A stretch of DNA of 58,593 nucleotides from Folioceros fuciformis (taxonomy: Eukaryota): assembly GCA_049999805.1 (NCBI GenBank), contig JBNGIO010006370.1, positions 497,212 to 555,804 of the forward strand, given 5' to 3'. A program made the translations under genes and the position numbers. The notes under the pieces are model-generated. The model searched no databases and was not told the DNA's origin. It saw only the letters and a list, made by a program, of their open reading frames with translations. This document shows, piece by piece, positions 1 through 26,423 of this stretch (positions within the stretch are counted from its first letter, which is position 1; each line of letters opens with the position of its first letter).

Positions 1-227
1 CTAATGACCCTAACAAGCCCATGAGTGAGGATGAATTATCCCATCCAAAAGATTATGGACCTAACGAACCTATGGATGAGGCAAGTTTAAGCAAACTTGA
101 AGAAGAAGCTTTAAATGGCCTTCATTTAGCAAGGATGAGTGACAATAGTCATGATCAAGAAGCCTTTAATAGTGGATGTAGAAGTTTAGATGAATTGAAG
201 GCTCTACTTAGAGGTTACAACAAATAA
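1..227 (+). CDS. 3' end of a paralog of the PLATZ tail-repeat gene at 5024-6327 (5' part lies outside the window)
   Basis: ORF 21..227 (PNEPMDEASLSKLEEEALNGLHL...CRSLDELKALLRGYNK) aligns with the end of ORF 5024..5608 (PSKPMYKAKLSKLEKGALKGL...CRSLDELKALLRHWGK) on the opposite strand. Confidence 0.65.
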   Translation, partial: NDPNKPMSEDELSHPKDYGPNEPMDEASLSKLEEEALNGLHLARMSDNSHDQEAFNSGCRSLDELKALLRGYNK

Positions 228-1020
228 ATTTTGGTTGTGAACTTCACATATCAAATGTTTAGAGATAAAAATAGCAAGAACGCGTTCCTCTCTAGAATTT
301 TATGGTAGTTTTAGACGTATAGTGTTTTTTTTATTGTTTTAGAGCTATAGGGTAGGTTTTAGATTTTTGATCCACAACATATAGTTTAAGGTTTACACTC
401 TATAGCAAAACAGTGTGTTATCAAGTTGTGCTTTCATCCTCTGACTCCTTGATATGTGAATGCGGAAACATTATTTAAAACCGAGATACAAAAACTCATT
501 TATCTTGAAAAAGGGGAAAAAATGGCTACAAAAAGTCGGTACGGCTGGAGAGGACTAAAGCCCAAGGCCTTCTAGTCTCAAGCTATTCTTTGCACCTAAA
601 ACAACATTATTAGGAAGGTGGAAGAGTTTGCATCGAAGCCATGAAGCCACGTTACTTGTGGTGGTCGTTATTTTGTAAATCGTATTGCTAAACACGATGG
701 GCGCGTGTTATCAACAAAGGGCCGTCTTTCCTATGCCCTATGTTAACTAATATTAGGACAAATGTAGGCTATAGTTCTCAATTCTTCACTAGGCGAAAGC
801 AACATCACAGCGGAGGTTCATGGAAAGAGTCTTAGCTATTGCATTTCTTCTCCTTGGTCCACGAACGCCATAGACTACACAATTCTAGAGAGTACCATAT
901 TGGGGCGTTAAATTGCACAGTGGCTACTACACCACTACATTTGAGAGTAGTTTGACACATGTTTTGTAACATTTTTGTAATGATATTTGTCACAAGTTGT
1001 AACATAATGCAACGCTTTTC

Positions 1021-1060
1021 TAATGACCTAGGTTCGGGTTCTAATGACCTAGGTTCGGGG
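1021..1060. repeat. Short tandem duplication (taatgacctaggttcggg x2)
   Basis: Seen directly; period 21 bp. Confidence 0.8.
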
Positions 1061-1429
1061 CCTGTAACCTTGGGTGGGTCTATCCCTTATACTAATTTGC
1101 ACCTCCCCTTCCAAAACTCCAACATAATGTAGCAAAGTACATTACATGGTATTACCACCAAAGAGTCATTACCCGTTACAAACAAGTTTGTACCACTGGT
1201 TGTTACACATTTCTAGGTTTGGTGCGAAACCTGTTAATCATGTTTTACCATGGTTTACATCCTTTCTCTTGTCCTCAATGCACTTTCAACAAGGCCTGAT
1301 CAAAACGGTCGGATTTCGTCATTTCTAGCTTTGTTGGATTTGGATGTTTAAATTTTGTGTCATGTATCCACATTTATGTACATTTATTTCTGGTGTTGCG
1401 TAAACCTGTAGAAAAAACACGTCTCGTAC

Positions 1430-1590
1430 TAAACACATGTATCTACCTTTCTTGCACATTAACACACTTGCGTATCTACCTTTATTGCACATGTATCTAC
1501 CTTTATTGCACATGTATCTACCTTTATTGCACATCAACACACTTGTGTTTTTGCCTTTATTGCAAATCAACACACTTGCGTATTTGCCTC
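1430..1590. repeat. Minisatellite, ~21-bp core tatctacctttattgcacatg with longer variant units
   Basis: About 5-6 imperfect copies. They produce the spurious repetitive ORFs 1325..1618, 1357..1875 and 1437..1685. Confidence 0.85.
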
Positions 1591-1599
1591 TGGTCAGAG

Positions 1600-2909
1600 A
1601 GTGCCGGTCTACTAGCACACTCGGAACGGACTACTCAAATGTCTATTTTTTCATCAGCTATCGTAATTTCCTCAAGAGAGACTAACGGGTTCAATTCGAA
1701 ATGCAGAAACCAGTGGAGATTATGGACTTGGAGTCCTTACCGAAACCCTTATAGGATTTTGTTTATTCGGCGAAGAATTGGAAAAGGATGGAAGAAAAGA
1801 AGCAAAAATTGGCCGACGCAGATATGGACGCGAGCTTATCTAACTTTAGAGTATTGGCCAATAACACGAAGTTAAATAGCAAGTTATTCAACGAAATGTT
1901 CTAGAAATGAAGGCATTTCTAGTGAAACTCCCGTACACGCTATTATTTGCAGACTTGCCTCGTGGGGTTCAGCGACATGAGTATGATAAGCATATGAATA
2001 TCGTAGAGTTGGATAAAATGATTCGAGGATTTAGCGAATGCATGTCGAGTACCATATTAAGAGTTATTCTCATGCATAGAGTTGATCTCATTTTAGAAGC
2101 AAGAGAGGTGCTACAACCATGGTGCAAAAAAGGGAGTATACAAACTTTGATATGGGAGAAGACAAACATACCCGCAAATGCAGGGTTTAGTTGAAACTGT
2201 TGAATATTTAACTGTGGGTAGTGTAGTGCAGACCGAGGCCCACAAGTCCAAGGCACCACTATTTGCGAATTAAGGGTTTCTCTTACCATGGGTTATAAGG
2301 CATGGAGCAATGGTGAAGAACCACCTATTTCATTTTGCAAATGCTCATGTTATCTCTTTTATACCAAAAACCATTGGGGCTGATGAGTATGCTTGTCAAT
2401 ATGTTGTCCTCATAGGGCGACCGGGTGGTTGATGTATGCGCAAGCTCTAGGTCTCTTCTCTAGAGTGCAATTCAAAATAGAAGGCATGCCGTTGCAATCG
2501 ATTTCAACGTTAGGTGCAATACATACATTATGCAACGGATTATGGGTCAAGGTTCTTTGCCTAACTCTGATGAAGAGATAACCACAAAATCCTTCACACA
2601 CGGACCATCAAAGTTTTATGCAAAAGAAGTGTGCGGGGATGGTAACGTTGATTGCAAAATGCTGGTTTATAATCTGTTAGGGAAGAAAAGTGAGGTCTTG
2701 AAAGTAATGATAGGCTAGCAGAGGACCTTTACGCCATTACGGTGTGGGATGAGAATGGCACTATACTGCCCCAAATAGTGGACGACCCACACTTTTTTGT
2801 GGTGGAGGTGGAAGGCGATGACTTTGGCGATACGCAAGCTCAACGGCTAAGAGAGTTAGATGTAGTAGTTGATTCAGAGGCAAACCAGGATGACCCTATT
2901 TTTGTGTGA
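1600..2909 (+). pseudogene. Decayed beta-class N6-adenine/N4-cytosine DNA methyltransferase (N6_N4_Mtase-like), with N-terminal extension and acidic C-terminal tail
   Basis: Joining frames gives KLFNE/VLEMKAFLVKLPYTLLFADLPRG (motif III-IV-like, ~1881-1966), IWEKTN (2150), VEYLTVG (~2199), YQKPLGLMSMLVNML (2362) and *GDRVVDVCASSRSLL*SAIQNRRHAVAIDFN (motif I-II-like, 2413-2508). The catalytic motif precedes the SAM-binding motif, as in beta-class enzymes. At least 3 frameshifts and several TAG/TAA stops. Confidence 0.75.
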
Positions 2910-3340
2910 GGAGTTCATGATAAACGTCGTGACCATTTTGATATGCTACTATTATTAACATTAATAGATACATGCGTCTACATGTTTGGACTACGCATTG
3001 TGTTAATGAACCTTAATGTTGTATTCAATGAACAAAATGGTCTCTATGATTAGAGAGTGCGCCATCAGACCAGCACGCCAAATTTGAGATACTCAAAATA
3101 TCAAGTTTTTTAACAGATCCTCATGATGTGGACTCAGTAGTTTTTCGTGACCGTCATGCAATTGGAACATAATATGAATGAAGACATGTCGACCGTCTCA
3201 ATGTTTTGAAAGAAAGAAAAAACGTAGATAAACAGCACAGATCGAACCCAGTTCAAAGTGCACCAAATGGGCTTTGTGGAATCCGACTATTTTGATCAAA
3301 CCTTGTTTTCCATTAAAATATGAGTGTTTTATCTAGTGCT

Positions 3341-3440
3341 NNNNNNNNNNNNNNNNNNNNNNNNNNNNNNNNNNNNNNNNNNNNNNNNNNNNNNNNNNNN
3401 NNNNNNNNNNNNNNNNNNNNNNNNNNNNNNNNNNNNNNNN
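3341..3440. other. Assembly gap (100 N)
   Basis: N run; ttatctagtgct is duplicated on both flanks. Confidence 0.99.
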
Positions 3441-3694
3441 TTATCTAGTGCTCATTTATGTTTTCTTGTCTGCCATGCATTTATTGGGCGTATGGTGTTT
3501 TTTAAATTTTTGCTACAAGTATTGACAATGTATCGTGTACAAAAACTATTTTATTTGAGGCTCATATACTAGGTACATAGGTCTGTCCCTTTTCACTTTC
3601 ATACAGCACACATGTGTTGTTTAACATGTCAATTTCACCCAATTGACGTTTCTTTGGTAAACATTTTTTTCCTACTGAAAATATGCACTACCCT

Positions 3695-3847
3695 TGTTCA
3701 AGGTACCCGTCACCCCTTGTGTTCACACAGTTGGTTAGCTCTGCACCTACACACATTGTAGGTAGCAGAGTGTTCAAGGTACCCGTCACCCCTTGTGTTC
3801 ACACAGTTGGTTAGCTCTCCACCTACACACATTGTAGGTAGCAGAGT
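3695..3847. repeat. 76-bp tandem duplication
   Basis: tgttcaaggtacccgtcaccccttgtgttcacacagttggttagctct...gtaggtagcagagt occurs at 3695 and 3771. Confidence 0.9.
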
Positions 3848-3999
3848 TCCCCCTCTATGATGACCTCGTTCTTGCACTTGTCCATTTGCACCTCTTGTCA
3901 CTGCTAACCCAATGTTTTCCTTCTCTGTGAGCCCCGTTACTTCCATGTCTCTACCTTTCACTCCACATCCCACACCATCGTGACATTGGGGACTAATAT

Positions 4000-4783
4000 T
4001 TGCAGCTCCTATGGTAGTCCTCATTCTTAGGACCAATCTTCTACTTGATCAACCAAAAGGCTACCTCATGAGGTAGCTACCTTAACCACGTCACCTCTCC
4101 AATAGCATGTACAGGTAAACCACCCTTAAAGATCACATCTCTCCTTCCCCTACTCTAGAAGAGACAAAGTCTGCTCAGTCTAGTTCAAAGGAAATAAATT
4201 GATCTCTCGGATCCAAGTCCCCCACCCCGCTATTCATAGAATGAGCTCCCTACATGCAATTAGTGACTTCCATATGTTGCAACAACACCTGCTTCACCAC
4301 TACATCCATTCCCTCCTATAGCCATGCAAAGATAAATCTAACATGCCGAGCTGAAATTGCAAACTCCACCTTTACTTCCTTCACATCTTTCCGAAATTTT
4401 TTTGCTCTGTTCTACGAGTTGGAACAACCCTTTCTAACTTGCTTAGCTAAAGATTTGGAAGCAATATACCCGCGGAACAAAATCTTCAGCCATGTGTCCC
4501 TTGAATTCCAGAGTCGAGTGCCTAATGCATCACCCATGCAAAAAGGGTTAGCCAAGATAAGAAATGCTTTGACCTCCAAGTAATTGCTCCATATGATTTG
4601 AGGAGCAATCCTTGGTATCTAGCAATGGCTTGTTGGCTAAGATGTTGTCAATTGATGTTCATCCTTAAAATACCGCTTGGGTTTGATGCAAGTGCTAGGT
4701 TTGGAGGGTTTTCCATGGGAACCAAGATGGGTTGGCAGCCTTAATTACCCACTAGGCATGCAGCATTTTCATCTTGCTAGTGG
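4000..4783 (-). mobile_element. Possible degenerate LINE ORF2 (post-RT region) fragment
   Basis: The minus strand near 4780-4700 reads KMLHA*WVIKAANPSWFPWK, resembling the 'AL..KW.....PW' segment downstream of the RT in plant LINEs. Many stops; extent approximate. Confidence 0.3.
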
Positions 4784-4883
4784 NNNNNNNNNNNNNNNNN
4801 NNNNNNNNNNNNNNNNNNNNNNNNNNNNNNNNNNNNNNNNNNNNNNNNNNNNNNNNNNNNNNNNNNNNNNNNNNNNNNNNNNN
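4784..4883. other. Assembly gap (100 N)
   Basis: N run. Confidence 0.99.
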
Positions 4884-5023
4884 ACGCTACCATATGAGTT
4901 AACGAAAGCATAGCCCTAAAATCTACTCCACAAGAAGTTGACCAACACCTCTTGCAACCTCTTCAACGTGCTCTTAGTAGTTTCATTTCTTGATATTTGA
5001 GATGTGAAATGCTCAATTGAGCT

Positions 5024-6327
5024 CTATTTACCCCAATGTCTAAGGAGAGCCTTCAATTCATCTAAACTTCTACAAATAGGGTTGTTGCCTGGTTGATTGT
5101 TATCATGGTGACTAGTACTTGCCAAACGATGGAGACCTTTCAAAGCTCCTTCTTCAAGTTTGCTTAGCTTACGACTATCATGACTAGTGCTTGCCAAAAG
5201 ATGGAGACCTTTCAAAGCTCCTTCTTCAAGTTTGCTTAGCTCACAACCATCATGACTAGCACTTGCCAAAAGATGGAGACCTTTGAAAACTTCTTCTTCA
5301 AGTCTGCTTAACTTTTGACCACCAGAGCTCACCAAATGTACAAGACCTTTCAAAGCTCCTTTCTCAAGTTTACTTAGCTTTGCCTTATACATAGGTTTGC
5401 TAGGGTCATAATCTTCTAGGTGGGATAACCCATCCTCTTTCAAGGACTCCTTTGGGTCATTACAATCTCCATGGAACTCATTTTCATGTAAGGGCTCGTT
5501 TGGGTGATTAGCTTCTCCTTCAAACTTATCCTTATTTACAGGCTCATTAGGGTTATAAGCCTTTGCTTCATATAACTCGTCCTTATCATTTGTTTTAGGT
5601 TTCTTCAAGTGTATTGTATTCTCCGTTTCTGGAATTGAAACAAAAAAGATTCATAAGTGCATTATCACATAATCTATAAATATTTTTATCAACATCTTTT
5701 TGACATTTTAGCATGCGCACAAAGCAAAAACATGAGACTATTACCTGTGATTGCAATAATGTTGTTAAAAGACCTATTTGCCCGTGTGGTATCATCATCA
5801 AAAGAAGATGTGCTACACCTCCTTTTCCTTGGTACATTGCAATTCATTCTAAACCCTTCAAAGCCAAGATGCATAAGCTTGCAATTGAGACTACAATAAG
5901 TATTCAAGCTCTTACATCCTTTGGAACCAACAAAAGAGTGATGTGTCAATTTGCTTGTTGTAGTTGTATATGTCAAATCTTGTATTTTGGGAGATAAAAG
6001 TGTGTGCTCCTTGTTGTTACACTTGAAAGTACTAATATCCCCAATATAGAGCATAGGTGCTAAAAGAGATTGAATATCTGAAGTGTAGATACCAAAACGT
6101 CGATTGACTTTTCTAACAGTCAGTACTTCGTGCTCTGCATGTAAATTCTTGCTACATTCGCTGCAAAATGGAGTAACCTGGCATTGAATGCAAAACTTGT
6201 TGCATCTTAACTTTTCTATATGAGGGTGCAATGGGCACACTTTATGATAATCATGCTCAAGAAATATTGGCAACCAATCAGGTTGGCGCCATATGAGCTC
6301 GGCTAGAGTTTCAGAAGAGGAATACAT
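5024..6327 (-). CDS. Divergent PLATZ zinc-binding transcription-factor-like protein with repetitive C-terminal tail (exons 6327-5745 and 5628-5024)
   Basis: PDWLPIFL followed by C-x2-H-x11-C-x2-C-x5-C-x2-C-x4-H-x2-H (canonical PLATZ site 1) and YCSLNCKL. A GT-AG intron at 5744..5629 (acag|gtaata ... ttttttgtttcaattccag|aa) joins ORF 5689..6339 in frame to ORF 5024..5608. Confidence 0.75.
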
Positions 6328-6699
6328 TTCTTCGTACAAATACCTACAAAATTCAATATAAAAATAATATTTTAAGTTATCAAGATTATAAAAACAATAA
6401 TATTTTAAATTACTAGGATAATATTAACAAATATTTGGAGGTAACAAGGTGAACTAGCATAAAGCTCATGTCTGACACCATACGCACAAATTAGCTTAGT
6501 GTCTACGTAGTTGTTTCGTAACTAGATTGATTACAACTATACCTTAATTGACCAAGTCGTGAAGGTAGCAAATAGGACCAGCAAAATTAATATACCTCTA
6601 GCATTCTTAGTTAAGAGACACCAAGCAAACACCTTGGTGGGCTTTTATAGAGCCGTAAGATGGAAGATGCTTATAGATGGCTCCATAAGAAAGACCGAG

Positions 6700-6880
6700 T
6701 TTCTTAGTTGACAAACAAAGTTGTTCCTAGTTGACAAATATAGTTATTTTTAGTTGACAAATATAATTATTTTTAGTTGACATATATAGCTATTGTTCTT
6801 TGTTGACAAATATAGTTGTTGGTAGTTGACATATATAGCTGTTCTTAGTTGACAAATATAGCTGTTCTTAGTTGATAAAT
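6700..6880. repeat. ~23-bp tandem array (tagttgacaaatatagttgttct) upstream of the PLATZ gene
   Basis: About 8 imperfect copies, nearly all carrying TTGACA. Confidence 0.9.
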
Positions 6881-7241
6881 AAATCTATTTCCTATATGAA
6901 CATAAAATGAATCTAATTATATGTAAATGGTGAATGGTTTCATGGGAAGGGCTTTAGTCACATGATATAGCTAATCTACATCAATGCTATTCTGAGAGTT
7001 ATGGCATATGAGTTTAATAGTATGATTGAAAATAGTAATGTTAAGCTTGCACTACAAGCCTAAGAGAAGTCCTTTACACGTTTCGAGAAGAGTATACCAA
7101 TATAGTACTACAATATACCAATATAGTACTACAATATAGATCTCTTGCCTTGCCTTTCTATAAGTGTGATCATAAATCCCAAAATGTATGGTAACCATCC
7201 GTCTTAGATTCTACTCTTTCTATCATCCCTTCCCGTAAACT

Positions 7242-7341
7242 NNNNNNNNNNNNNNNNNNNNNNNNNNNNNNNNNNNNNNNNNNNNNNNNNNNNNNNNNNN
7301 NNNNNNNNNNNNNNNNNNNNNNNNNNNNNNNNNNNNNNNNN
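7242..7341. other. Assembly gap (100 N)
   Basis: N run. Confidence 0.99.
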
Positions 7342-8500
7342 AGTGGAGATTTTGACACCAGCGGCATTTTTTGGGAGTTGAGCCCTTTCGACTCCTACTC
7401 CTATTTTGGCTTCCTGTTGTCTCATTCACCATGCTTGCATTTTGGAATCTTTTGTCGTTAGTATTGAGGAGGGTGATCTCCCTTTGCAGGTGTTCCCAAG
7501 ATCGGCTAGGGATGCTCTTTCTTCTACGGCTATGATTGCTATGCTTCAATTTTTATCTATGCTTGTGGTGGGTATTTGGGGGCTCCAAGCTTCTCTTCTT
7601 AAGAAGGAATACGAGTAGATGCAGCTTAATATTCTTCAAGATTCTTCTATCCCCAAGCCCGTCCAAGCATGGCTCCATTCATGCTTAGGCTCTTGGCTCA
7701 ACCTAGCATCTAGGCTTTTTGAATCGTACCAATCACATTCTCTATTGTGATAAGGTTTCACCTTGGTTTGATCCAACTGTTGGCTTGCTCGAGCTCTCTG
7801 CTCTTGCATTTGTGGGGCAAGTCTAAACAACTTCGGTACTCATCTTGCACATTGTTCAAGTGGGGGTTAACGGATTGCTACGTAGGATGTCGTGCGAGAT
7901 GTCATGTTTTCGTAGGCCAAAGAGGTTGGCTTTTTGTCCTTTAGGGAGTGCTTGTACACTACTTAATGACCTTTCTCTTTAAGCTGACCTTTTCCTCATT
8001 CAAGGAGATCAACAAGTTGCGGACATGGTTGTAACTGATCCCACATGGGTCACAGTCTGCGAGCATGTTATTGGTTGTAACTGATCCCACATGGGTCAGA
8101 GTCTGCGAGCATGTTATTCTCAACTCTCTAGGTTGGGTGGCTGAGGGAAGTGCATCGTCCAAGGTTCACAAGTACGGTCCTCTACAGGCTAGAGACACTT
8201 TATCCCCCTTGCCATTGAGATCCACGGGGCCATGGGCAAGGCCTTTTCCAAGTTTTTGAAGTCTTGCGCCAAGGCGGTTCACAATAAAAGAAAGAAAGCA
8301 GTTGGTCTCTAGAGATCTTTGATATCTTTTCGCATATTTTTGGAAGAGGGTTTCTATTGTTCTATAGTTAGCGTTGAATAATGCTCTATACAAGATGACA
8401 ACATTGGCAGGAGAGGTGGAGTTAGCAACCATGGTGGTAGGTAGAGCCTTTCTCCTCCAAGACCTAATGATACAGATACTATAGGTAGTCATTAAGCTTC
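7342..8500 (-). mobile_element. Degenerate retrotransposon gag-like relic
   Basis: Broken minus-strand ORFs end in RSRSRKGSTPKKCRWCQNLH, the start of a zinc knuckle cut by the gap. Segment ~8100-8180 is homologous to ~21280-21360. Internal ~45-bp duplication at ~8027-8117. Confidence 0.45.
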
Positions 8501-8644
8501 ATGGTTTATCTCTTTCTCTAGAGGTAGATAAGTTTCTCTATCTTGTTCTTCTTAAATAAATAAATAATTCTTCTTTCTACAAGTCATTGATGATAGAAAG
8601 GAATTCTCCCTATAATGTCTTCCATCGCACACCATGTCCATAAA

Positions 8645-8648
8645 AGAC

Positions 8649-8682
<34 letters not shown>

Positions 8683-8732
8683 AGACTATATATAAAATAT
8701 ATATTAATATATCAATATACATAATACATATT
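8645..8732. repeat. (TA)n-rich microsatellite overlapping the PPR1 stop codon
   Basis: Seen directly. Confidence 0.9.
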
Positions 8733-11700
8733 AATCAACTCGGCTTCACTTTGATCATCTCCAACCAAAAAACTATGCACCAAACCATTTGTGTCTGTCC
8801 ACCAGCTCTGACCTGGCTGCTTCCATGCCCTAATTCTTTTCCTCCTGAACTGCATTTTCTGCGCCTGCTCGCACATGTGGGCGCTCATGTATATATTCGA
8901 CATCAGGACATACGGTGCAGCGTCTCTCTGGTCCAGCTTGACTGCTTCATTGAAAGCGCGGTGTCCCACATCCACGTTACCCCACTTCCGACAAGCACTC
9001 AAGAGTGTGCGCCAAACTGCAGCATTAGGCTGTAAAGGCATTGTGATTACTAAACCCAGTGCCTCATCCAGTTGTCCTGCACGACCCAAGAGATCTACCA
9101 TGCATGTGTAGTGGATTTCCGTGGGAATGATCCCATAGTCTCTGCTCATTGCATCAAAGAAATTCTGGGCTGTGGTCACTAGACCTCTGTGACTACACAC
9201 AGTTAGTACACTAAGGAATGTGATGCCGTCTGGGCTAATGCCGTCCACACTCATTTTCTGGAACAAGTCAAACACCACTTCACTGTTCCCCTCACCAGTG
9301 TAGCCTGCAATCAGGGCATTCCAGACAAAAACATCTCGTTTGGGCAATGCATCAAACACCTCCTGGGCAAGTACTGTGATCCCGGACTTCCCGTACATGT
9401 TTATCAAATTGCCAGCTACAAGCACATTAGCTTCAAGACCTTGTTCTACAATGTGTGCATGTACCTGACGCCCCAAACCTAAGGCTGCTACATTTGAACA
9501 GGCCTGCAGGAGACACACGAATGTCGCAGGATCCGGTACAGCCTTGCCTTCTTGTAGCATGCAACTGTAGAGACGAAGGGCCTCCTGCCCCATACCCTGC
9601 TGGGAGTAACCCGCTATCATTGCATTCCACGTTACTACATCCTTTCTACCAAGTCTGTCAAAGACTTTCTGCGCATCGTTCAAGCTGCCACACTTTGCAT
9701 ACATGTTCACCAAGCCGCTCGCTACAAACAGGTCGTCTTCAAAGCCTTGTTCTCGAATTGTTGTGTGCAGCTGCTTCCCGTTTTGAAATGCAGGGACGCC
9801 TAAACATGCACAAGCCTGCAGCACGCACAAGAATGTCACTGAGTTGGGCGCAGCCACGCCCTCTTCTTGCATATCATAGTAAAGGGAAAGAGCTTCATGA
9901 CCCATGCCCTGATGCGAATATCCTGCTATCATGGCATTCCACGTCACCACATCTTTTTCATCCAGTCCATCAAACAGTTGCTGAGCGTCCTCCAAGCTAC
10001 CACAATGTGCATACATATGCACTAAACTGCTGGTCACAAACACATCAGCGTCATGTCCTCCTTCTCTGATATGCAAATGAATCTGCTTTCCCGTCTCCAG
10101 AGCCGAGTTGCCCATACATGCACATGCCTTTAGGACGGACAAGAACGTGACAGAATTGGGAGAAGCCACGCCTTCTTCTTGCATCGCACTGTAGAGACGA
10201 ATGGCTTCCTTGCCCATTCCCTGCTGGGAGTACCCTGCTATCATGGTATTCCATGTCACGACATTCTTTTGAGAAAGTCCATCAAACACCCTTTGGGCGT
10301 CATGCAAGCTGCCACACTTCACATACATGTTTACCAAACTGCTCACCACAAATACATCAGCTTCATAGCCTCCTTGTCGCAGCTGGTCATGAAGATGCTT
10401 CCCCTTCTCAAACGCTGCAGTGCCCACACTTGCACAAGCTTGGAGGAGGCTCACAAACGTCACGGAATCCGGTACAGCCATACCTTCTTCCTGCATAGCA
10501 CTGTGGAGACGAAGAGCTTTCTCCCCCTTGCCCTGCTGGGTGTAGCCTGCTATCATGGCATTCCAAGTTGCTGCATTCTTCTGACCAAGTCCATCGAATA
10601 CACTCTGTGCAATTTCCAAGCAGCCACACTTTGCATACATGTTCACCAAACCGGTCCCTACAAACACGTCAGCCTCAAGTCCTCGTTCTTTGATTTGCGC
10701 ATGCAGTTGCTTCCCCTTATCCACCGCTGGGGAGCCCACACTTGCGCATGCTTGCAGGAGGCACTTGAATGTCACGGAATCAGGTACAGCGCTGACAGAT
10801 TGCTGCATACAGCTGTACAGACGAAGGGCTTCATGCCCCATGCCCCCCTGATAATACCCTGCTATCATGGCATTCCACGTCACCACATTTTTTTCACCGA
10901 GTCCGTCAAACAGCCTTCGTGCATCTTCCAAGCTGCCACACTTTGCATACATAGTGACCAAACTGTTCGCCACAGACACATCAGCTTCATGGCCTCGGTT
11001 TCTGAGATGCAAATGAAGCTGTCTCCCTTCTTGCAATGCGGGGGTCCCCATAGTTGCACATGCCTGCAACAGGCATGCGTATGTCACAGAATTCGCTACT
11101 GCCATACCACCTTCTTCCATTGCACTCCAAAGCTGAAGAGCTTCCAGCCCCATGCCCTGCTGGGAGTACCCTGCTATGAGGGCATTCCATGTCACCACAT
11201 TCTTTTGACCAAGTCCGTCAAACACTCTCTGAGCGTCCTCCAGGCTGCCACATTTTGCATACATGTTTATCAAGCTGTTGGCTACAAACACATCCACTTC
11301 ATGTCCTTGTGCCCTAATCTGTGCATGAAGCTGCTGCCCCTTCTCCAAAGCCAGGGCACCCATCCTTGCACATGCCTGCAGGAGGGAAACGAATGTAACA
11401 GGATTGGGTGCAGTCATGCCCTCTGCTCGCATAGCACCGTAGAGACGAAGGGCTTCTTCCCCCATACCCTGCTGGGAATACCCTGCTATCATGGCATTCC
11501 ATGTCACCACATCTCTTTCACGCAGTCCGTCAAATACCCCTCGAGCTTCCTCCAAGCTGCCACACTTTGCATACATACTCACCAGGCAGTTGCACACAAA
11601 TAAACCAGGGTCAACGCCACTAACCAACACATCAGCGTGCACCTGCTGTCCAGATTTCAAGTCTGAACCCCTGGCGCAAGCCTGCAAAGCTGCCACAAAA

Positions 11701-12596
11701 ACATGGCTATCTGGTTTCACGCTGGACCTACGCATCCTATGATACAGTTGTATGGCAATCTTGTCTCTACCCTGTTTAACATGTGCAGAAATTATGGAAT
11801 ACCACATGAAAGCATCTGGTTCGGCCACACCTTCGAACACATCCATCGCATCTTGCAACCTGCCAAGAGAAGCATACATTCGTAGGATGTGATTGCACAG
11901 GAACGTATCTGACTGGTAACCCTTTGTCAACGTGAAAGCATGGATGCGGCTTCCCTGAACAAGATCCTTCTCCTCTATGCATTTCCTCAGAACTGTGACC
12001 AACAGAGATTTGGAAATAAAAGGTTCTGTCAGCACCAGGACTTCCAAACCCTCAACAGCCTCACTCAGATGACCCTCATGACAAAGCTTCATCACGGTCT
12101 CAGCCGACAAGCCTCTGTACTGACGAGTAAACCTGATGGGGTCAGGGTCACGAGGCAACTTCCTGTAGGCCATATCCAGAGCAGCAAGCTGTGCATCCAC
12201 CCAAGCTGGCTTATGCAAGCTGTTTAACCAGAGGACGTCATGGGACTGCCTGTGCCGGAAATCAGGCGATCGGCAGCTCTTCTTACTTTGCCTGTAATCC
12301 CACCAAACTGTAGGATCCTGGAAAAGATGTCGCCACAAGTTCTCCTGCCGACGCCCCTCAGTGGAGGACGGATTGCCAGCTACAGATTGCCTTGGACTGG
12401 CAGGCTTCCTGGCAAAGGTGCTGCACCTCCCGTTCTGATTCTGCACCACCACCTGCTGGTTGCTTACAGCAATTCGGACAGGAGTTCTTTCTCGAACACC
12501 CGCTAAGGCAACCCACTCCTCTATCCTCCAACATTGTCCCCAAGCAGGATCCACCTGCCCTTGAGGTAATCTGCTTTCAACGAACCATATTGCCAT
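8712..12596 (-). CDS. PPR1: PLS-class PPR protein (E/E+, WW-type PG box, no DYW) with an N-terminal OSB-type PDF motif; putative organellar RNA-editing specificity factor
   Basis: Intronless 1294-aa ORF. P-L-S triplets, then P2-L2-S2 (CSHRGLV, HYTCMVDLLGRAG), E1/E2 and KQPGQSWWTD...HSFLVGD. N-terminal LWRHLFQDPTVWWDYRQSKKSCRSPDFRHRQSHDVLWL...PAWV. Confidence 0.93.
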   Translation of the reverse strand: MAIWFVESRLPQGQVDPAWGQCWRIEEWVALAGVRERTPVRIAVSNQQVVVQNQNGRCSTFARKPASPRQSVAGNPSSTEGRRQENLWRHLFQDPTVWWDYRQSKKSCRSPDFRHRQSHDVLWLNSLHKPAWVDAQLAALDMAYRKLPRDPDPIRFTRQYRGLSAETVMKLCHEGHLSEAVEGLEVLVLTEPFISKSLLVTVLRKCIEEKDLVQGSRIHAFTLTKGYQSDTFLCNHILRMYASLGRLQDAMDVFEGVAEPDAFMWYSIISAHVKQGRDKIAIQLYHRMRRSSVKPDSHVFVAALQACARGSDLKSGQQVHADVLVSGVDPGLFVCNCLVSMYAKCGSLEEARGVFDGLRERDVVTWNAMIAGYSQQGMGEEALRLYGAMRAEGMTAPNPVTFVSLLQACARMGALALEKGQQLHAQIRAQGHEVDVFVANSLINMYAKCGSLEDAQRVFDGLGQKNVVTWNALIAGYSQQGMGLEALQLWSAMEEGGMAVANSVTYACLLQACATMGTPALQEGRQLHLHLRNRGHEADVSVANSLVTMYAKCGSLEDARRLFDGLGEKNVVTWNAMIAGYYQGGMGHEALRLYSCMQQSVSAVPDSVTFKCLLQACASVGSPAVDKGKQLHAQIKERGLEADVFVGTGLVNMYAKCGCLEIAQSVFDGLGQKNAATWNAMIAGYTQQGKGEKALRLHSAMQEEGMAVPDSVTFVSLLQACASVGTAAFEKGKHLHDQLRQGGYEADVFVVSSLVNMYVKCGSLHDAQRVFDGLSQKNVVTWNTMIAGYSQQGMGKEAIRLYSAMQEEGVASPNSVTFLSVLKACACMGNSALETGKQIHLHIREGGHDADVFVTSSLVHMYAHCGSLEDAQQLFDGLDEKDVVTWNAMIAGYSHQGMGHEALSLYYDMQEEGVAAPNSVTFLCVLQACACLGVPAFQNGKQLHTTIREQGFEDDLFVASGLVNMYAKCGSLNDAQKVFDRLGRKDVVTWNAMIAGYSQQGMGQEALRLYSCMLQEGKAVPDPATFVCLLQACSNVAALGLGRQVHAHIVEQGLEANVLVAGNLINMYGKSGITVLAQEVFDALPKRDVFVWNALIAGYTGEGNSEVVFDLFQKMSVDGISPDGITFLSVLTVCSHRGLVTTAQNFFDAMSRDYGIIPTEIHYTCMVDLLGRAGQLDEALGLVITMPLQPNAAVWRTLLSACRKWGNVDVGHRAFNEAVKLDQRDAAPYVLMSNIYMSAHMCEQAQKMQFRRKRIRAWKQPGQSWWTDTNGLVHSFLVGDDQSEAELINMYYVY

Positions 12597-13384
12597 GGCT
12601 CAGTTGCAGGAGCACCGCCTGCGAGACTACGTATGCAAGTCGGATCCACCACACTGCACTTCCTGGACAGAACCTCGAACCACCTGCATAATGACATGAC
12701 TGACCATCTCACCAAGTGCAATTGTGACATCAGCCTGCCTCTGGGCACAGTCCTCGGGAGCTTTAGCTTCATGCCTTCCTCCTACCATTCTCCGTGCTGA
12801 AGAGTAAAGAAACGTGATTCATTTGGTGGTAAACCACACGTCCGATTGGCAGTGCACATATGTTTTCTGTAAGGGCCCTCGCTCACCCACTCCTCACTGA
12901 GCAGCGCAAGTATCTCCAGGCTGACTGCAATTTTATCTCGCTTAGAAGCAGACAGCGAGAAGAACGTGGAGTCCGAAAATGGGCAAACGAACCAGTGACA
13001 GCAAGAGCTGCAAAGATCCCATATCACAGATGAATACAGCTCCAAAATGTGCATCCACCTGCAAGCATACCAACCTGCCCCTGCTGTGGGAACAGGTTTG
13101 CAACAGTTGAAGAATTTACAGGATAGTAGTAGAGACTGCTGCAGAAAACTTGGTGTCACCGAATTCTGGATCACCTTTCAGTTGTCTGCCTCAAAATCCG
13201 ACTTTAGCTCAGTTGGGCGATGGAGGATTGTAGACGAATACGTATATGTTGCTAAGTGGGCAACCCGTCTTTAGCTTGGAAGAAGCGCTCGCCAAAACGG
13301 AGAGAAATCCCCGAGCTTAGCCGAGCCTGAAGGAGCTTAGGCCTGAAGGAACTTATTCAAGAGAATGCTGGGCTGAGGACCCAC

Positions 13385-16036
13385 ATGGCTCAACAGTTTT
13401 CAGAAGTAGTTCGGGTGAATGCGAGGTTGGCTGCTCCAGATCGGAGTGGCCCCACGGCTGAAATGGTGGGGAAGCTTTGTCAACTGGGGCAGACCGTTGA
13501 TGCTGTTGAAGCTCTGGGAGTTATCGTGCAGACAGGCTGTGGTGTTTCTCGATCCCTTGTACATGCTGTCCTAAAACAGTGTGTGGTGACAAGAGATTTG
13601 GTTTTGGCTCGCCGTGTTCATGCTCTGTTTGTGAAGGAGGGGTACGAGTCGGACACGTTTTTGTGCAACCACATCCTACGAATGTATGCTTCTCATGCCA
13701 GGTTGCAAGAAGCAATGCAATTGTTCACAATGGTGGCCAAACCAGATGCCTTCACATGGTCTGCCATAATTTCTGCTCATGTCAAACACGGGCAAGAAAA
13801 GATGGCCGTCCAACTGTACTATCGGATGCGTATGTCAAGTGTCAAACTGGATTGCCATGTCTTTGTAGCAGCACTTCAAGCCTGTGCTAAGGGAGGGGAC
13901 TTGGAAACTGGGAAGCAGGTGCATGCTGATTTGCTGGCCAGTGCGGTTGTCCCTGATTTGTTTGTTTTCAACTGCTTGGTGGACATGTACTCAAAGTGTG
14001 GCAGCCTAGAAAAAGCTCAGAGAGTGTTTGATGAACTTGGTCAGAAAGATGTGATCACTTGGAATGTGATGATTGCAGGATATTCGCAGCAGGGAATGGG
14101 GCAGGAAGCCATTTGTACTTTCAGTACTATGCAAGACGAAGGGTTCGTTGCACCTGATTCGGTGACATTTCTGGCCGTTTTGCAGGCCTGTGCGAGTCTG
14201 GGTACTGCAGCTTTGGAGAAGGGGATGCAGCTTCATGCACAGATAACAAAATGCGGACTTCAAACAAATGTGTCTGTGGCGAATAGTTTGGTGAACATGT
14301 ATGCAAAGTGCGGCAGCTTGGAAGATGCTCAAAAGATATTTGACAAGCTTCCTCACAAAGATGTGGTGACTTGGAATGCCATGATAGCAGGATATTGCCA
14401 ACAGAACATGGGTCAGGAAGCCCTGCATCTTTATGATGATCTGCAAGCTGAAGGCTTGGTTGAACTCAATTCTGTGACGATTCTGTGCCTCCTGCAGGCC
14501 TGTGCAATTGTTGGCACCCCGGCTTTAGGAAAGGGGAAGCAGCTTCACGCAGAGATTGGAGTACGAAGGCTTTTGGCTGACGTGTTTGTGGCCAACAATT
14601 TGGTAACCATGTATACAAAGTGTGGCAGCTTAAAAGACGCTCGCACAGTGTTTGATGGACTGTGTCAAAAGAACGTGGTGACATGGAATGCCATCATTGC
14701 AGGGTATGCGCAGGAGGGCATGGGTCAGGAAGCCCTTCGTCTCTACAGTGCTATGCAGGATGAAGCCACTGCTGCACCTAGTTCTGTGACTTTTGTGTCT
14801 GCCCTGCAGGCTTGTGCTAGTATTGGTACCCCAGCGTTGGGGAAAGGGAAACAACTGCATGCAGAGGTTGAACGGCAAGGACTCCAGGCGGATGCTGTTG
14901 TAGGTGGCAGCCTGGTAAACATGTATGCAAAGTGTGGCAGCTTACTGGATGCTCAGAGGGTGTTTGACGGGCTTAGTCAGAGGACTATTGTGACATGGAC
15001 CGCTCTGATAGCAGGATATTCTCAGCAGGGCATGGGGCAGGAAGCTCTTCGTGTGTACAGTCTTATGCACAAAGAAGAATGTATCGTAGCACCGACTGGG
15101 GTGACGTTTGTTTGCCTACTGCACGCTTGTGCTGATGTGGCAGACTTGCGTCTTGGAAGACAGCTTCATGCACAGATTGAAGACCAAGGGATTCAAACTG
15201 ATCTAGCCATCAGTTTGATAAACATGTACGCAAAGTGCGGGAGCATGGTCGATGCACAGGAGGTGTTTGATGCATTACCTCAAAGAGACGTCGTGGCCTG
15301 GAATTCTCTGATGGCAGGTTACTCTCGCCAGGGAGACAGCGAGGCGGTCTTCGACTTGCTCCAGAGAATGGAAGAAGCCGGCATACACCCTGCCTGCATC
15401 ACCTTCCGTAGTGTACTATCTGCGTGCAGTCATGCGGGTCTAGTGAACAAGGGGCGAGATTACTTTGAGGCTATGAGCAAAGAATATGGGATCATTCCCA
15501 CAAGAGAACACTACACGTGCATGGTGGATCTCCTGGGTCGTGCAGGCCACCTGGGCACGGCACTAGCTTTGGTCAGGACCATGCCGGTAACACCTGACCC
15601 TGCAGTTTGGCACACTCTGTTGGGCTCTTGTCAAAAGTGGAACAACGTGGAGGTGGCACAGCATGCTTTCAATGAAGCTGTGAAGCTCGACAAACACGAT
15701 GCGGCAGCCTACGTGTCTATGTCGAACGTGTACCTGGCTGCTGGGATGTGTGATGAGGCACAGGAAATGCAGTTGACGAGGTTAGGGATAGGCGCATGGA
15801 AGCAACCAGGCCAGACCTCGTGGACGGATATGGATGGACTGCTGCATACATTTTCAGTCGGGGACCAGACTCGTCCACAGAGCGAATGTGTACACGTAAG
15901 GCTTAGCAAAATGGTTTGTTCCTTGCAGAAAGACGCTGCAGTGGGCGTGTTTGAAGATGCGCATGACCCCAACGTAATAAGAATGAAGCCCAAACACATG
16001 ACACTCTGGACACGTATGTGCGCAACAAGCATCTAG
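13385..16036 (+). CDS. PPR2: PLS-class PPR protein, E+ subclass, no DYW
   Basis: Intronless 883-aa ORF with PLS triplets, CSHAGLV, E1/E2 and KQPGQTSWTD...HTFSVGDQTRPQSE. No HxE/CxxC deaminase motif. Confidence 0.92.
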   Translation: MAQQFSEVVRVNARLAAPDRSGPTAEMVGKLCQLGQTVDAVEALGVIVQTGCGVSRSLVHAVLKQCVVTRDLVLARRVHALFVKEGYESDTFLCNHILRMYASHARLQEAMQLFTMVAKPDAFTWSAIISAHVKHGQEKMAVQLYYRMRMSSVKLDCHVFVAALQACAKGGDLETGKQVHADLLASAVVPDLFVFNCLVDMYSKCGSLEKAQRVFDELGQKDVITWNVMIAGYSQQGMGQEAICTFSTMQDEGFVAPDSVTFLAVLQACASLGTAALEKGMQLHAQITKCGLQTNVSVANSLVNMYAKCGSLEDAQKIFDKLPHKDVVTWNAMIAGYCQQNMGQEALHLYDDLQAEGLVELNSVTILCLLQACAIVGTPALGKGKQLHAEIGVRRLLADVFVANNLVTMYTKCGSLKDARTVFDGLCQKNVVTWNAIIAGYAQEGMGQEALRLYSAMQDEATAAPSSVTFVSALQACASIGTPALGKGKQLHAEVERQGLQADAVVGGSLVNMYAKCGSLLDAQRVFDGLSQRTIVTWTALIAGYSQQGMGQEALRVYSLMHKEECIVAPTGVTFVCLLHACADVADLRLGRQLHAQIEDQGIQTDLAISLINMYAKCGSMVDAQEVFDALPQRDVVAWNSLMAGYSRQGDSEAVFDLLQRMEEAGIHPACITFRSVLSACSHAGLVNKGRDYFEAMSKEYGIIPTREHYTCMVDLLGRAGHLGTALALVRTMPVTPDPAVWHTLLGSCQKWNNVEVAQHAFNEAVKLDKHDAAAYVSMSNVYLAAGMCDEAQEMQLTRLGIGAWKQPGQTSWTDMDGLLHTFSVGDQTRPQSECVHVRLSKMVCSLQKDAAVGVFEDAHDPNVIRMKPKHMTLWTRMCATSI

Positions 16037-16094
16037 ACACGCCTGCAAAAACCGAGCTTCCTGCTCAGCACCAGATACTCCCTCCTTTCTTCAC

Positions 16095-16268
16095 TCTGGA
16101 AAGTATTTGCTGGTCATCACCAACCAGGAAACTGTGCACCAGTCCATCCTCATTTGTTCACCAGCTCAAACCCGGCTGCTTGGATGCCTTGATTCGTTTC
16201 CTGGTCTCCTGCAGCCTCGGTGCACCCTCCGCATCTGGGCACCATTGTGTATGTCGGACTATCAACAG
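16095..16268 (-). pseudogene. Inverted fragment of a PPR E2/PG-box region
   Basis: The minus strand reads SDIHNGAQMR/LQETRKRIKASKQPGLSW*TNEDGLVHSFLVGDD, homologous to the PPR3 C-terminus SNIYTGSQMW...RIGAWKQPGQSWWTDDEGLVHSFLVGD. TGG>TGA stop plus frameshifts. Confidence 0.85.
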
Positions 16269-16518
16269 GTAGAGAGAGGATGAACCCATCTACCACACCA
16301 TAGGGCGGCATGGGGCGAGCCGAGGTCACATAAGCTGGAGGATCGATGAACCGTCCCTGATGTCAGTCACATGGAGCGCAGGAAACGAAAGCACATGGCA
16401 ACAATTCACCTGCCATGGTATCCTTCCAATGTGGTTGCAAGGTCGATGGTCTTCTAGAAAATGCAAATCCGGTGGGTGCTCCTTGCATCCACAGGCTTAG
16501 CGCGTGCCCCTGCAAGCA

Positions 16519-19500
16519 ATGGCTGTTCCGAGAGTGGCAATCGGGTCACGCAAAGGGGAGGAAGGCACGTTGTGGGGACACTTTTCCTGGACACAAGAAT
16601 GCGGTGGCTGCACGGGTCATGTTCTGGGAGGATGGTCTGTTGGTCTGAATTCCAAGAACCAACGGTTTGGGCAGAGGCAGCTGGGCAGAAAGCCAGCCCG
16701 TGCAAGAGGATGCCTGACCGGCGAAGACTGTAGCCGTCAATCGACTCTCTTGCGGTCCAGGCAGTCCCGAGGGGCCCTCTGGTTAAACAAATCTTTAAAG
16801 CCAGCTTGCGTGGCTGCGGAGCTTGCTGCTCTGGATGATTCTGAGCTTTGCAGGCTTGCAGATGATGATAAGAGCGTGACAGTTGAAACTGTTAGGAAGC
16901 TCTGTGGAAATGGCCGCGTCGCTGCGGCCGTTGAGGCTTTGGAGGTTCTGGTGGAGTTAAAACGTCGTATTCCCAGGTCTCTCTTATATGCTGTTCTGAA
17001 GAAGTGTGCAGGGAAGAAAGATGTTGTTCTGGGCAGCCGTGTCCATGCATTGGTGATGAAAAAGGGATTCCAGTCAGACACGTTCCTGGGCTTCCACATC
17101 CTCCGGATGTATGCGTCTCATGGCAAGTTGCAAGACGCGATGGAGGTGTTTGGAGCCGTTTCCAAACCGGATGCCTTCATGTGGTCTGCCATAATATCTG
17201 CACATGTCAAGCATGGGAAAGACAAGCAGGCCATAGAGCTGTACTTTCGGATGCGCAGGACTGGTGTGAAGGGAGATGGGCATGTGTATGTGGCAGCTCT
17301 GCAGGCTTGTGCGAGGGCATCGGACTTGCAGTCTGGGGAGCAGGTGCATGCTGATGTGTTGACTAGTGGCCTTCAGCCTGATTTGTTTGTGTGTAACTGC
17401 TTGGTGAGCATGTATGCAAAGTGTGGCAGCTTGGAGAAAGCTCAGCAGGTGTTCGATGGCCTTGGTCATAGAGATGTCGTGACCTGGAATGCTCTGATTG
17501 CAGGCTATTCCCAGCAAGGTATGGGGGAGAAAGCCCTTCGCCTATACAGTGTGATGCAAGAGGAAGGCGTGATTGTACCCAATTCCTTGACATTCGTGTG
17601 CCTCCTGCAAGCATGTGCAAATGTGGGCACTCGAGCTTTGCAGACAGGGAAGCATCTTCATGCACAAGTCAGGGAACGACGACATCAAGCTGATGTCTCC
17701 GTGGCCAATAGTTTGGTGAGCATGTATGCAAAATGTGGCAGCTTGCAAGATGCTCAGAGGGTGTTTGATGGGCTTGGCCACAAGGATGTGGTGGCCTGGA
17801 ATGCCATGATAGCAGGGTATTCCCAGCAAGGTATGGGACAGAAAGCCCTTCGACTCTACAGTGCTATGCAAGAACAAGGAGGCATGGCGTCACCCAATTC
17901 CGTCACATTTGTGTGCTTGTTGCAGGCATGTGCAAGTGTGGGCACCCCCGCATTGGAGAAGGGGAGGCATGTTCATGTGCAAATAAAAGAACGAGGTCAT
18001 GAAGGTGATGCGTTTGTAGCCAGCAGTTTGGTGAACATGTATGCAAAGTGTGGCAGCTTAGAGGACGCTCAAAAAGTGTTTGATGGATGTGGCGAAAAAA
18101 ATGTGGTGATGTGGACTGCCATGATAGCAGGCTATTCCCAGAAGGGTCTCGGGCACGAAGCGCTTCATCTCTATAATGCTATGCAAGAGGGAGGTATGGC
18201 TGTACCCAATTCTGTGACATTTGTGTGCCTCCTGCAGGCTTGTGCAAGTATAGGCACCACGGCCCTGGAGAAGGGCAGGCTTCTCCATTTGCAAATTAGA
18301 GAGCAAGGACATGAAGGTGATGTCTTCGTGGCCAACAGTTTGGTGAACATGTATGCAAAGTGTGGCAGCTTGGGAGACGCTCAAAGAGTGTTTGACGCGC
18401 TTGGTCAGAAAGATGTGGTGACGTGGACTGCCATGATAGCGGGATATTCCCAGCAGGGGATGGGCCAGGAAGCCCTGTCTCTCTACAATGCTATGCAGCA
18501 AGAAGGCATGGCTGTTCCAAATTCTATCACCTTTGTGTGCCTCCTGCAAGCATGTGCAAGTGTGGGCACTTCAGCGTTGGAGATGGGGAAGCACCTTCAT
18601 GCAAAAATTAAAGATCAAAGTGATGTAGTTGATGTATTTGTAGCCAACAGTTTGGTGAACATGTATGCGAAGTGTGGCAGTCTACAGGATGCTCAAAGTG
18701 TGTTCGATAGACTTGGTGTAAGAGATGTGGTGACCTGGACTGTTATGATAGCTGGGTATTCCCAGCAGGGTATGGGGCAGGAAGCGCTTCATCTTTACAG
18801 TGCCATGCAAAACGAAGGCATGGCCGCACCTGATTCAGTGACCTATGTTTGCCTCCTGCAGGCCTGTGCAAGTGTGGGTACTCCAGCTTTGGAGATGGGA
18901 AAGCTGCTTCATGCGGAAATCAGAGAAGGAGGACATGAAGCTGATGTTTTTGTAGCCAACAGTTTGGTGACCATGTATGCAAAGTGTGGCAGCCTACAAA
19001 CTGCACAGAGAGTGTTTGACCGGCTTGGTAAAAAAGACGTGGTGACGTGGACTGCCATGATAGCAGGGTATTCCCAGCTGGGCAAGGGCCAGGAAGCTCT
19101 TCGTATCTTCAGCGCTATGCAAGAAGGAGGCATGGCTGTACCCGATTCTGTAACCTTTGTGTGCCTCCTGCAGGCGTGTGCAAGTGTAGGCGCCCAGGCT
19201 TTGGCTGAGGGGAAGCAACTCCATGCACAGATTAAAGAAGGAGGGCACGAAGCTGATGTGTTTGTGGCCAACAGTTTGGTCAGCATGTATGCAAAGTGTG
19301 GCAGCTTGGAAGATGCACAGAACGTGTTCGATGGACTTGTTCAACGAGATGTGGTTACCTGGACTGCCATGATCGCAGGGTATGCTCAGCAGGGCATGGG
19401 ACAGGGAGCCCTTAATCTCTACAGTGCTATGCAGGCAGAGGGTGTTGCAGTTCCTGATTCTGTAACCTTTATTTGCCTCATGCAGGCATGCGCAAATGTG

Positions 19501-25372: not shown

Positions 25373-26423
25373 TGAAGCAGGTCACTGCACCAGTGCAGGC
25401 CACAACAATCAGATCCCGACAGCCACTTCCGGCAAAGAAGGCCAGATCCGCACACTCTCACAAGCCTAATCTGTGCAACCTCCCGCACTCAGCTGAGCAG
25501 ATCGCCACAACAAGCTGCAGCTGGCAGGACACTCAGATCCGACGTTCACATCCGCCAAAACAGCCACGAGAAACACTGACCTGTGTGAACCAGCCCAAGA
25601 AGACGGCAGCCAGGAGAAGACTGGAAAGACGCTGGAGCCGCCGCGGCCTGTCGTCTCCAGTACGCAGCGACTAAAGGCTATGCTACGCGACCACAGACCA
25701 CGACACCTTCTCCCCTTCCGTTGTCAAGCAGCCTACCAGTTGTTTTCGTTTCCTGTTGAAGAAAATGCTAGAACCGACCCTTTACTTGAGAAAACCAAGA
25801 GAACCATCTACCTCGAGAGAAGTGAAACAAACCGCCACCAAAGCTGACCGAGCCCCCAAGGGCAACCCCCTCAACCCGCTGAGTTTAAAAATTAATCAGA
25901 GCATCCAAGATATTTTTGTCCAAAAAAGAGAGGGTCTAGCTACCATTGGAGTCGTTCATATTACCTTTCCTAAAATTGATGTTCTTCCATATATTCTATT
26001 AGCTAGGGTATGTCCATTGTAATGCAATGGAAACCCTCCATGGAAACAATGCTACAATAGAGGAAGACCAAGCCTATTTTTCTTATTGTGAACTACCTTG
26101 ATGTAATCCTTCACAAACTTGGAAAAGACCTTGTACATAACCCTATATGTCTTAACCACAAGGGGATAAAGGGAGATATAATGTGTATGGCCTGCAAAGA
26201 AGTGTACGTGTGGGTTTGGGCCGTTGAGTTCCCCTGGTGCCATCCAACCCGGGAAGTTGGGGACAACATGCTCGTAGATCAAGGTCCCTGTGGATTTGAT
26301 ACAACCATGCTTGCAGATCCAAGTATGTGTGGGTTTCATACAACCATGTTTGCAACATAAGCTTGTTTTGCCTAGATAAGGAAAGGGTCAGCCACTAGAG
26401 AAACATCATGAGAGAGCCAACGA

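Follow-up and report, generated by a model that had tools for sequence, protein, structure and literature searches.

Examination of a 58,593-nucleotide stretch of the Folioceros fuciformis assembly (contig JBNGIO010006370.1, positions 497,212 to 555,804 of the forward strand; this whole stretch is hereafter the window) revealed a broken gene at positions 1701-2909 of its plus strand, whose parent very probably belonged to a divergent family of homologues of the beta-class amino-methyltransferases (MTases). This relic is a collinear pseudogene interrupted by four in-frame stops and four frameshifts; it is homologous, block after block, to a small set of relatives with which it shares the residues D-L-P-R-G at the place of catalytic motif IV. 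An earlier note, made from the letters of this DNA, had claimed a dead, frame-broken beta-class N6_N4 homologue with the motif order of that class, and matches to PF01555, to PHROG, in hhalign and to a profile of the family have borne this out.

Structure and lesions of the relic

The coding sequence of the relic can be followed along a path of five frames which, named by their starts, succeed one another as 1701, 1880, 2151, 2317 and 2694, with frameshifts near 1892/1895, 2185/2193, 2357/2362 and 2691/2703. The following features can be distinguished.

1682-1706, plus strand: possible remnant of the 3' end of an intron, with CTAAC at 1682-1686, about 20 nucleotides (nt) 5' of ...tgcag (AG at 1705-1706)
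1701-1892, plus strand: N-terminal segment, MQKPVEIMDLESLPKPL, a stop (TAG, 1752-1754) and DFVYSAKNWKRMEEKKQKL..., seen by tblastn and in a single-domain profile alignment
1895-2185, plus strand: catalytic half, with D-L-P-R-G at 1952-1966 and IWEKTN (the VWxKxN motif of the family) at 2150-2167; a frameshift on each side
2193-2357, plus strand: middle segment, VETVEYLTVGS ... NHLFHFANAHVIS, the most decayed part, with TAA at 2271-2273; shorter than in relatives and inside the same single profile alignment
2362-2691, plus strand: half corresponding to the S-adenosylmethionine (SAM)-binding part, with YQKP at 2362-2373, DVCASSRS at 2431-2454, then AVAIDFN...IMQRI; TAG at 2413-2415 and at 2461-2463
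2703-2909, plus strand: acidic C-terminal tail after the last frameshift (about 2691/2703), in an open reading frame (ORF) at 2694-2909 closed by TGA at 2907-2909

All the peptides quoted in the earlier note were found at their places: KLFNE at about 1880-1893, in the frame of 1755; VLEMKAFLVKLPYTLLFADLPRG, within which lies DLPRG; IWEK at 2150-2161; VETVEYLTVG at about 2192-2221; YQKPLGLMSMLV from 2362; GDRVVDVCASSRSLL, a stop and SAIQNRRHAVAIDFN...IMQRI over 2416-2541; and the tail, which ends in DDPIFV. A conserved extension, SLPNSDEEI...FYAKE, comes after IMQRI in the SAM-binding half. The start had been placed too far upstream, at about 1600, and similarity begins instead at 1701 (an ATG) or at 1707. 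Two segments that had been listed separately belong to one frame broken by stops alone, so that 2317-2718 can be read through with X at the stops. The N-terminal extension and the C-terminal tail proposed to lie beyond the MTase core are both present, and are common in part to the relatives described below.

Decay of the relic extends to its most conserved positions. Part of the region before YQKP is gone through an internal deletion, motif I reads DVCASSRS followed by a stop where relatives have DGCSGSGS, the SAM-binding feature being absent from the relic, and FHSPDD is replaced by MHRVDL. The relic keeps 44 of the 113 columns that are invariant in the family, a further 10 being gaps or X, and its identity to relatives is 24-29%, those same relatives being 42-54% identical to one of their number, P0004. 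Because of the four stops, the four frameshifts, the internal deletion and the destroyed motif I, the copy in the window is read as a dead pseudogene, from which no protein would be made and by which nothing would be methylated.

Homology of the relic with beta-class methyltransferases

A search with phmmer of the 104-amino-acid fragment encoded at 1880-2194 against 1.84 billion representative proteins gave four matches at E <= 0.001, two of which are real relatives, both of them ORFs and more intact than the relic: P0003 (323 amino acids, E 9.6e-8) and P0004 (446 amino acids, E 2.3e-5). The other two, P0002 (FF-domain repeats) and P0005 (tandem repeats), were rejected as repeat artefacts. P0006, P0009 and P0010 came from word-indexed searches, for which P0004 and an alignment served as queries; the cluster of P0010 also contains P0011 and P0012. 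All of these relatives come from Logan assemblies only and are without names in the databases searched.

When a profile of five relatives was compared with every one of the 2,562 fragments that the six frames of the window yield, the best four matches all fell in the relic, collinear and in the order of the profile: 1880-2191 (E 4.3e-16), 2317-2412 (E 0.24), 2416-2460 (E 3.4) and 2464-2715 (E 2.4e-4). The best match outside the relic had an E of 4.1. The three C-terminal fragments constitute an independent check, because they had not been used in finding the relatives. Joined across its frames by X, the relic gives a read-through of 398 amino acids, which matches the family profile as a single domain of 122.9 bits over profile positions 27-311 (best of 500 shuffles, 1.6 bits) and a profile of 70 viral PF01555 sequences with 23.1 bits (best of 500 shuffles, 3.9 bits). 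In the opposite direction, P0003 and P0004, used as tblastn queries, recovered the relic as the sole locus of the window, with 1883-2179 at E 9e-14, 2362-2559 at E 5e-11 (P0003) and a weaker match at 1701-1850; over this last interval residues 12-61 of P0010 and 13-48 of P0004 are aligned at 28-31% identity, scored jointly with the core match. On these sequence comparisons, the resemblance is judged to be far beyond chance.

The class of the parent enzyme is indicated mainly by the C-terminal read-through (2317-2718, stops as X). Its best Pfam family is PF01555 (E 0.0054, profile positions 165-212 of 221), although the score of 17.1 bits lies below the curated gathering score of 26.7 bits. The same read-through matches phrog_3008, "DNA methyltransferase", with an E of 9.5e-8, and is aligned by hhalign with 27 viral PF01555 proteins over 66 columns (probability 94.9%, E 4.5e-8). 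For the N-terminal piece the corresponding alignment is weak and covers the DPPY site alone (E 0.11), and its nearest clusters in the ESM Atlas are PF01555-type (0.91-0.92), which is taken as a lead only. The permuted order of the beta class, with motifs IV-VIII before the QKP of motif X and motif I, is present in both relic and family. No match to MT-A70 (PF05063) was obtained for the relic or its relatives, in which the block of QKP and motif I is present.

Searches with the 1880-2194 fragment by itself remained negative outside the family: BLASTP against E. coli YhdJ gave an E of 3.2, phmmer against PDB sequences three matches at E 0.24-1.2, none of them an MTase, tblastn against phage records one match at E 9 to a hypothetical protein, and the word-indexed search for longer proteins nothing at E <= 1. 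The 70-sequence viral PF01555 profile ranked a relic fragment first among the 2,562 fragments of the window, but with an E of 2.1.

A family with a conserved D-L-P-R-G loop

Motif IV reads D-L-P-R-G in the window and in all three distinct relatives that cover it (P0003, P0004 and P0010/P0012), and the canonical form (D/S/N)-P-P-(Y/F/W) is absent from both relic and family. Among the 27 viral PF01555 members, the second P of this motif is invariant and the Y at least 90% conserved. The loop had been taken for a mutated catalytic motif; its presence in every relative covering the motif marks it as a family trait and not as decay. The relatives have motif I as DGC(S/A)GSGS (DGYAGSGS in P0009) and the QKP motif as SPYQKP. 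An N-terminal leader, a C-terminal extension and an acidic tail are further features of the family, the tails of P0004, P0006 and P0009 being long, acidic or serine-rich and not alignable, with disorder predicted in the model of P0004.

The relatives can be assigned to the beta class with more precision than the relic itself. P0003 and P0004 score 50.1 and 30.0 bits against PF01555 (cut-off 26.7), in both cases through the C-terminal half, and hhalign of the family against the viral PF01555 proteins gives a probability of 98.9% and an E of 1.9e-17 over 222 columns, in which LDLPRGL stands opposite DPPYNIG. An AlphaFold2 model of P0004, computed from a 32-row alignment, has a mean predicted local distance difference test score (pLDDT) of 50-97 in ten-residue blocks over residues 71-310, with values of at least 90 over 71-100, 111-170 and 251-290, of 50-53 around 201-220, and a disordered tail. 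The top PDB matches of this model in Foldseek are CcrM (E 9.5e-13), M.MboIIA, M.BceJIV, M.RsrI, the rotifer N4CMT and M.PvuII, at about 1e-10 to 1e-12. From these matches and the 222-column alignment, both the fold and the motif order of the family are of the beta class, the fold being that predicted for the relative P0004 rather than for the relic.

SAM binding is plausible in the relatives because motif I is kept as DGCSGSGS, and living members of the family probably still bind SAM. In canonical enzymes the aromatic residue of motif IV stacks on the flipped base. Because this residue is lost in the family, ordinary base methylation, whether of DNA adenine at N6 or of cytosine at N4, appears doubtful; living members, which are without it, would either have a different substrate or work as partners with no catalytic activity of their own.

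Putative exon structure

One member of the family appears to be spliced to an upstream exon, which would make the family a eukaryotic, intron-bearing one. In P0012 (418 amino acids, on a 4.0-kb contig) the P0011 ORF continues in frame into P0010, the junction being ...SFGGL/RVRSVGNL, while P0011 and P0010 also occur as separate ORFs, each listed with a longest contig of 16.2 kb. The P0010 and P0004 ORFs read ...Q just before RVRSVGNL, as expected for run-through of a CAG acceptor. The window has ...tgcag at 1702-1706 followed by AAACCAGTG..., with CTAAC about 20 nt upstream, and similarity to the family starts exactly there. The simplest reading of these junctions would be a conserved intron, the window holding the large MTase-like exon only.

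The upstream N-terminal region seen in P0011 and P0012 comprises about 200 amino acids, in at least one member of the family. It gave no Pfam family at E <= 0.1, no PDB match and no viral locus, and the upstream part of P0012 no NCBIfam or PHROG family; no trace of the exon was found in the window. A single-sequence AlphaFold2 model of the P0011/P0012 exon was unusable (mean pLDDT 32.9). This region may be a domain specific to the lineage, for targeting or for binding a partner. Directly 5' of the relic, at 1434-1600, lies a tandem array of 21/33-nt units (GTATCTACCTTTATTGCACAT...), which occupies the place where one would look for the upstream exon or the remaining part of the presumed intron.

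Taken with the homology, these features suggest that the parent of the relic would have been a eukaryotic, intron-containing gene, a member of a small family of beta-class (N6_N4, PF01555-fold) amino-MTase homologues, and that the window copy would correspond only to its large MTase-like exon. A wider proposal can be put forward tentatively and is on present evidence rather doubtful: that this is an undescribed eukaryotic, intron-bearing family combining a beta-class fold, an intact SAM site, a conserved D-L-P-R-G loop and an additional domain, assignable to no known family, at the N-terminus, and that its living members, in relatives of this plant or elsewhere, would be new eukaryotic MTases with an unusual substrate or non-catalytic partners of another MTase.

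Origin of the relic and alternative explanations

Several observations weigh against deriving the relic from such a gene family. Its Pfam score is below the curated cut-off, none of its seven single-frame fragments matched PF01555 in Pfam even at E <= 10, and the middle segment alone had no significant match (no Pfam family; hhalign E 0.74). The family itself amounts to five clusters (seven sequences), all of them Logan contigs, and some of its half-length members (P0006, P0009 and P0010) may themselves be pseudogenes. The splice sites are read from protein ORFs only, and the relic is compatible both with a unitary loss and with a dead duplicate.

We consider it unlikely that the family is mobile rather than of the host and that the relic was the cargo of a transposon or of an endogenised virus of the giant-virus or Polinton-like kind. 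PF01555 enzymes are abundant in viruses and phages, and the nearest named clusters of the ESM Atlas and PHROG are viral; the relic lies in repeat-containing intergenic DNA of low guanine-plus-cytosine content (GC), and several family members are fragmentary. Additionally, some 174-base bins within the relic reach 3-5 times the summed contig depth of the flanks and several contigs run into unlike sequence, which hints at partial copies elsewhere, although a copy number cannot be taken from summed contig depth. The relic is nevertheless not bracketed by inverted or long terminal repeats; neither terminal or long terminal repeats nor transposon or virus genes were seen within about 5 kb of it, and the 9 kb around it hold nothing transposon- or virus-like. 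The six neighbouring ORFs had no Pfam match, and none of them could be recognised as encoding a transposase, an integrase, a capsid protein or another viral product. In IMG/VR the family signature had no match, the only hits being three generic ones to the C-terminal half at 35% identity, and a spliced upstream exon would be in keeping with a gene of the host or with a eukaryotic element, but not with recent insertion of viral DNA. The idea of a mobile family put forward in the earlier note thus has no counterpart within about 5 kb of the relic. Nor do the searches bear out the terms "prokaryote-type" and "horizontally acquired", since the family signature and family-specific peptide patterns gave no close relative in the GTDB species genomes (prokaryote contigs, one genome per species), in JGI metagenome contigs or in IMG/VR, and one member looks spliced. 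In principle, any eukaryotic PF01555 homologue is likely to go back to an old transfer from bacteria or viruses, and this may hold here too.

Very little speaks for a gene that still works, its lesions bypassed by introns, RNA editing or recoding. All four stops are TAG or TAA, which the U-to-C editing of the organelles of some early land plants would turn into Gln codons, and an apparent splice acceptor lies at 1705-1706; the locus, however, is nuclear, where such editing is not known, and the four frameshifts are located within coding blocks that are conserved and collinear, and not in intron-like gaps. The change of GSGS to SSRS in motif I, the loss of FHSPDD and the small share of invariant columns retained also argue against a working product. 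No RNA runs were listed as containing the stretch, and a run guessed to be RNA gave no contigs over it. Chance resemblance, bacterial or phage contamination, or misassembly is scarcely credible. It is true that searches with single fragments were negative, that the stretch was found in two runs of one sample only, and that no listed contig bridges the relic to a flanking plant gene. Against this, independent fragments match at E 1e-8 to 1e-16 in collinear order, the nearest relatives are not prokaryotic, and a heavily decayed ORF is unlike contaminating bacterial DNA. Contigs of the two runs cover 1505-2095 and 2144-3070 with no differences (the sample may be that of the assembly itself), and the relic resembles its flanks in contig depth (13 and 7.5 in the relic, 9.9 and 9.8 in the flanks) and in GC (0.39, against 0.45-0.57 in the gene-rich parts of the window). 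Descent from a divergent beta-class MTase-like gene accordingly remains the explanation preferred here.

Comparison with known methyltransferases

The bacterial and phage Type II beta-class MTases, such as CcrM, M.MboIIA, M.RsrI, M.BceJIV, M.PvuII and YhdJ, have the fold predicted for the family and the same permuted order, in which the catalytic half is followed by QKP and then by SAM motif I, and the C-terminal half of the family matches them by sequence. They differ in each of the principal motifs, with (D/S/N)PP(Y/F/W) in place of D-L-P-R-G, HPTQKP in place of SPYQKP and DPFxGSGT in place of DGCSGSGS, and identity between the family and the 27 viral PF01555 members is just 13-22%. Unlike these enzymes, the family has additional sequence at both termini and probably an intron with an exon upstream of it, and its copy in the window is a pseudogene.

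Two eukaryotic cases can be set beside the family. The rotifer N4CMT (PDB 8s9m, 8s9n and 8s9o) is likewise a PF01555-fold protein with added non-bacterial sequence in a eukaryote; the P0004 model matches it in structure with an E of 2.5e-11 at 13-14% identity, and the sequences match over the SAM half with an E of 5.5e-6. The bdelloid enzyme is described as an active N4-methylcytosine (4mC) methyltransferase with a C-terminal chromodomain (PMC8885841). In contrast, neither a chromodomain nor another Pfam domain was found in P0003, P0004 or P0012, and the catalytic motif of the family is non-canonical. In Marchantia polymorpha, DN4MT1a and DN4MT1b are likewise beta-class amino-MTase homologues of a land plant with flagellate sperm. 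These proteins carry TSPPY and cluster with prokaryotic 4mC enzymes, according to the preprint (bioRxiv 10.1101/2021.02.12.428880), and on that description they are set apart from the DLPRG family, which lacks TSPPY; the link to DN4MT1 drawn previously therefore appears weak. Apart from DN4MT1 of Marchantia, the literature consulted describes no family of the DLPRG type or resembling PF01555 in land plants, bryophytes included, although supplements may list such genes.

A resemblance of another kind, in possible mode of action only, is to METTL14 and the ciliate MTA9, which likewise keep an MTase fold and have lost the canonical aromatic residue of motif IV. METTL14 has EPPL as this motif, and both proteins are non-catalytic partners of the MT-A70 clade. 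By analogy, the DLPRG proteins may serve as scaffolds or partners, or their substrate may have changed. METTL3-METTL14 and the MTA1 complex belong to a different family and give weak structural matches (E about 1e-6), and motif I of the DLPRG family looks intact, unlike that of those partners.

PF01555-type amino-MTases are rare in eukaryotes, and the two studied cases, 4mC in Marchantia sperm and N4CMT in rotifers, each opened a new line of epigenetics. The relic led to a third and different set of eukaryote-like homologues, apparently a divergent eukaryotic form of a known enzyme class, with a consistently non-canonical catalytic loop that is conserved among its members. The relic itself is without function; its worth lies in leading to this family and in the evidence it gives that such a gene was once present in this plant lineage. 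Expression of intact members, should it occur, would open the way to direct tests for a new substrate or for a role as partner.

Nuclear setting of the window

The gene content of the window indicates nuclear DNA of a flagella-making land plant. Three long intronless pentatricopeptide repeat (PPR) proteins with E motifs are encoded at 8712-20289, and the plant is taken to make flagella because dynein heavy-chain exons are present. The PPR cluster comprises genes at 8712-12599 (minus strand), 13331-16036 (plus) and 16501-20289 (plus), of 901-1295 amino acids, for none of which Pfam reported a DYW domain. The dynein heavy-chain exons lie at 37881-44343 on the minus strand, and encode AAA_7, the microtubule-binding stalk and AAA lid domains at about 39-44 kb. 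An ORF with an ENTH domain (23135-25381, minus strand) and another with an ENGase-like C-terminal Ig domain (31536-32477, plus strand) are ordinary host genes.

The relic sits in low-GC intergenic DNA between two convergent paralogous PLATZ-like genes. The first, at 3-227 on the plus strand, ends at 227, and the second spans 5024-6423 on the minus strand; they have in common the C-terminal ending ...CRSLDELKALLR... and LSKLEE(G/E)AL(K/N)GLH repeats, which the minus-strand gene encodes in tandem units of 72 nt at 5109-5390. The match of the upstream part of the latter gene to the PLATZ zinc finger is weak (E 0.014). Over positions 1-8700 of the window, searches of the minus strand and of Rfam gave no credible match.

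Some irregularities of the assembly were observed downstream of the relic. A run of N is drawn at 3337-3440, across which a short-read contig of run X1 links 3328 to 3441, so that the gap may be far smaller than drawn. A 76-nt tandem duplication at 3695-3846 is present as one copy, not two, in that contig, and may be polymorphic or an assembly artefact. Finally, in contigs of run X3 over 3875-4488, the differences from the window are almost all G to A (56 places, with 59 in one 614-nt contig), a pattern that points to a bisulfite-type or enzymatically converted library rather than to true variation.

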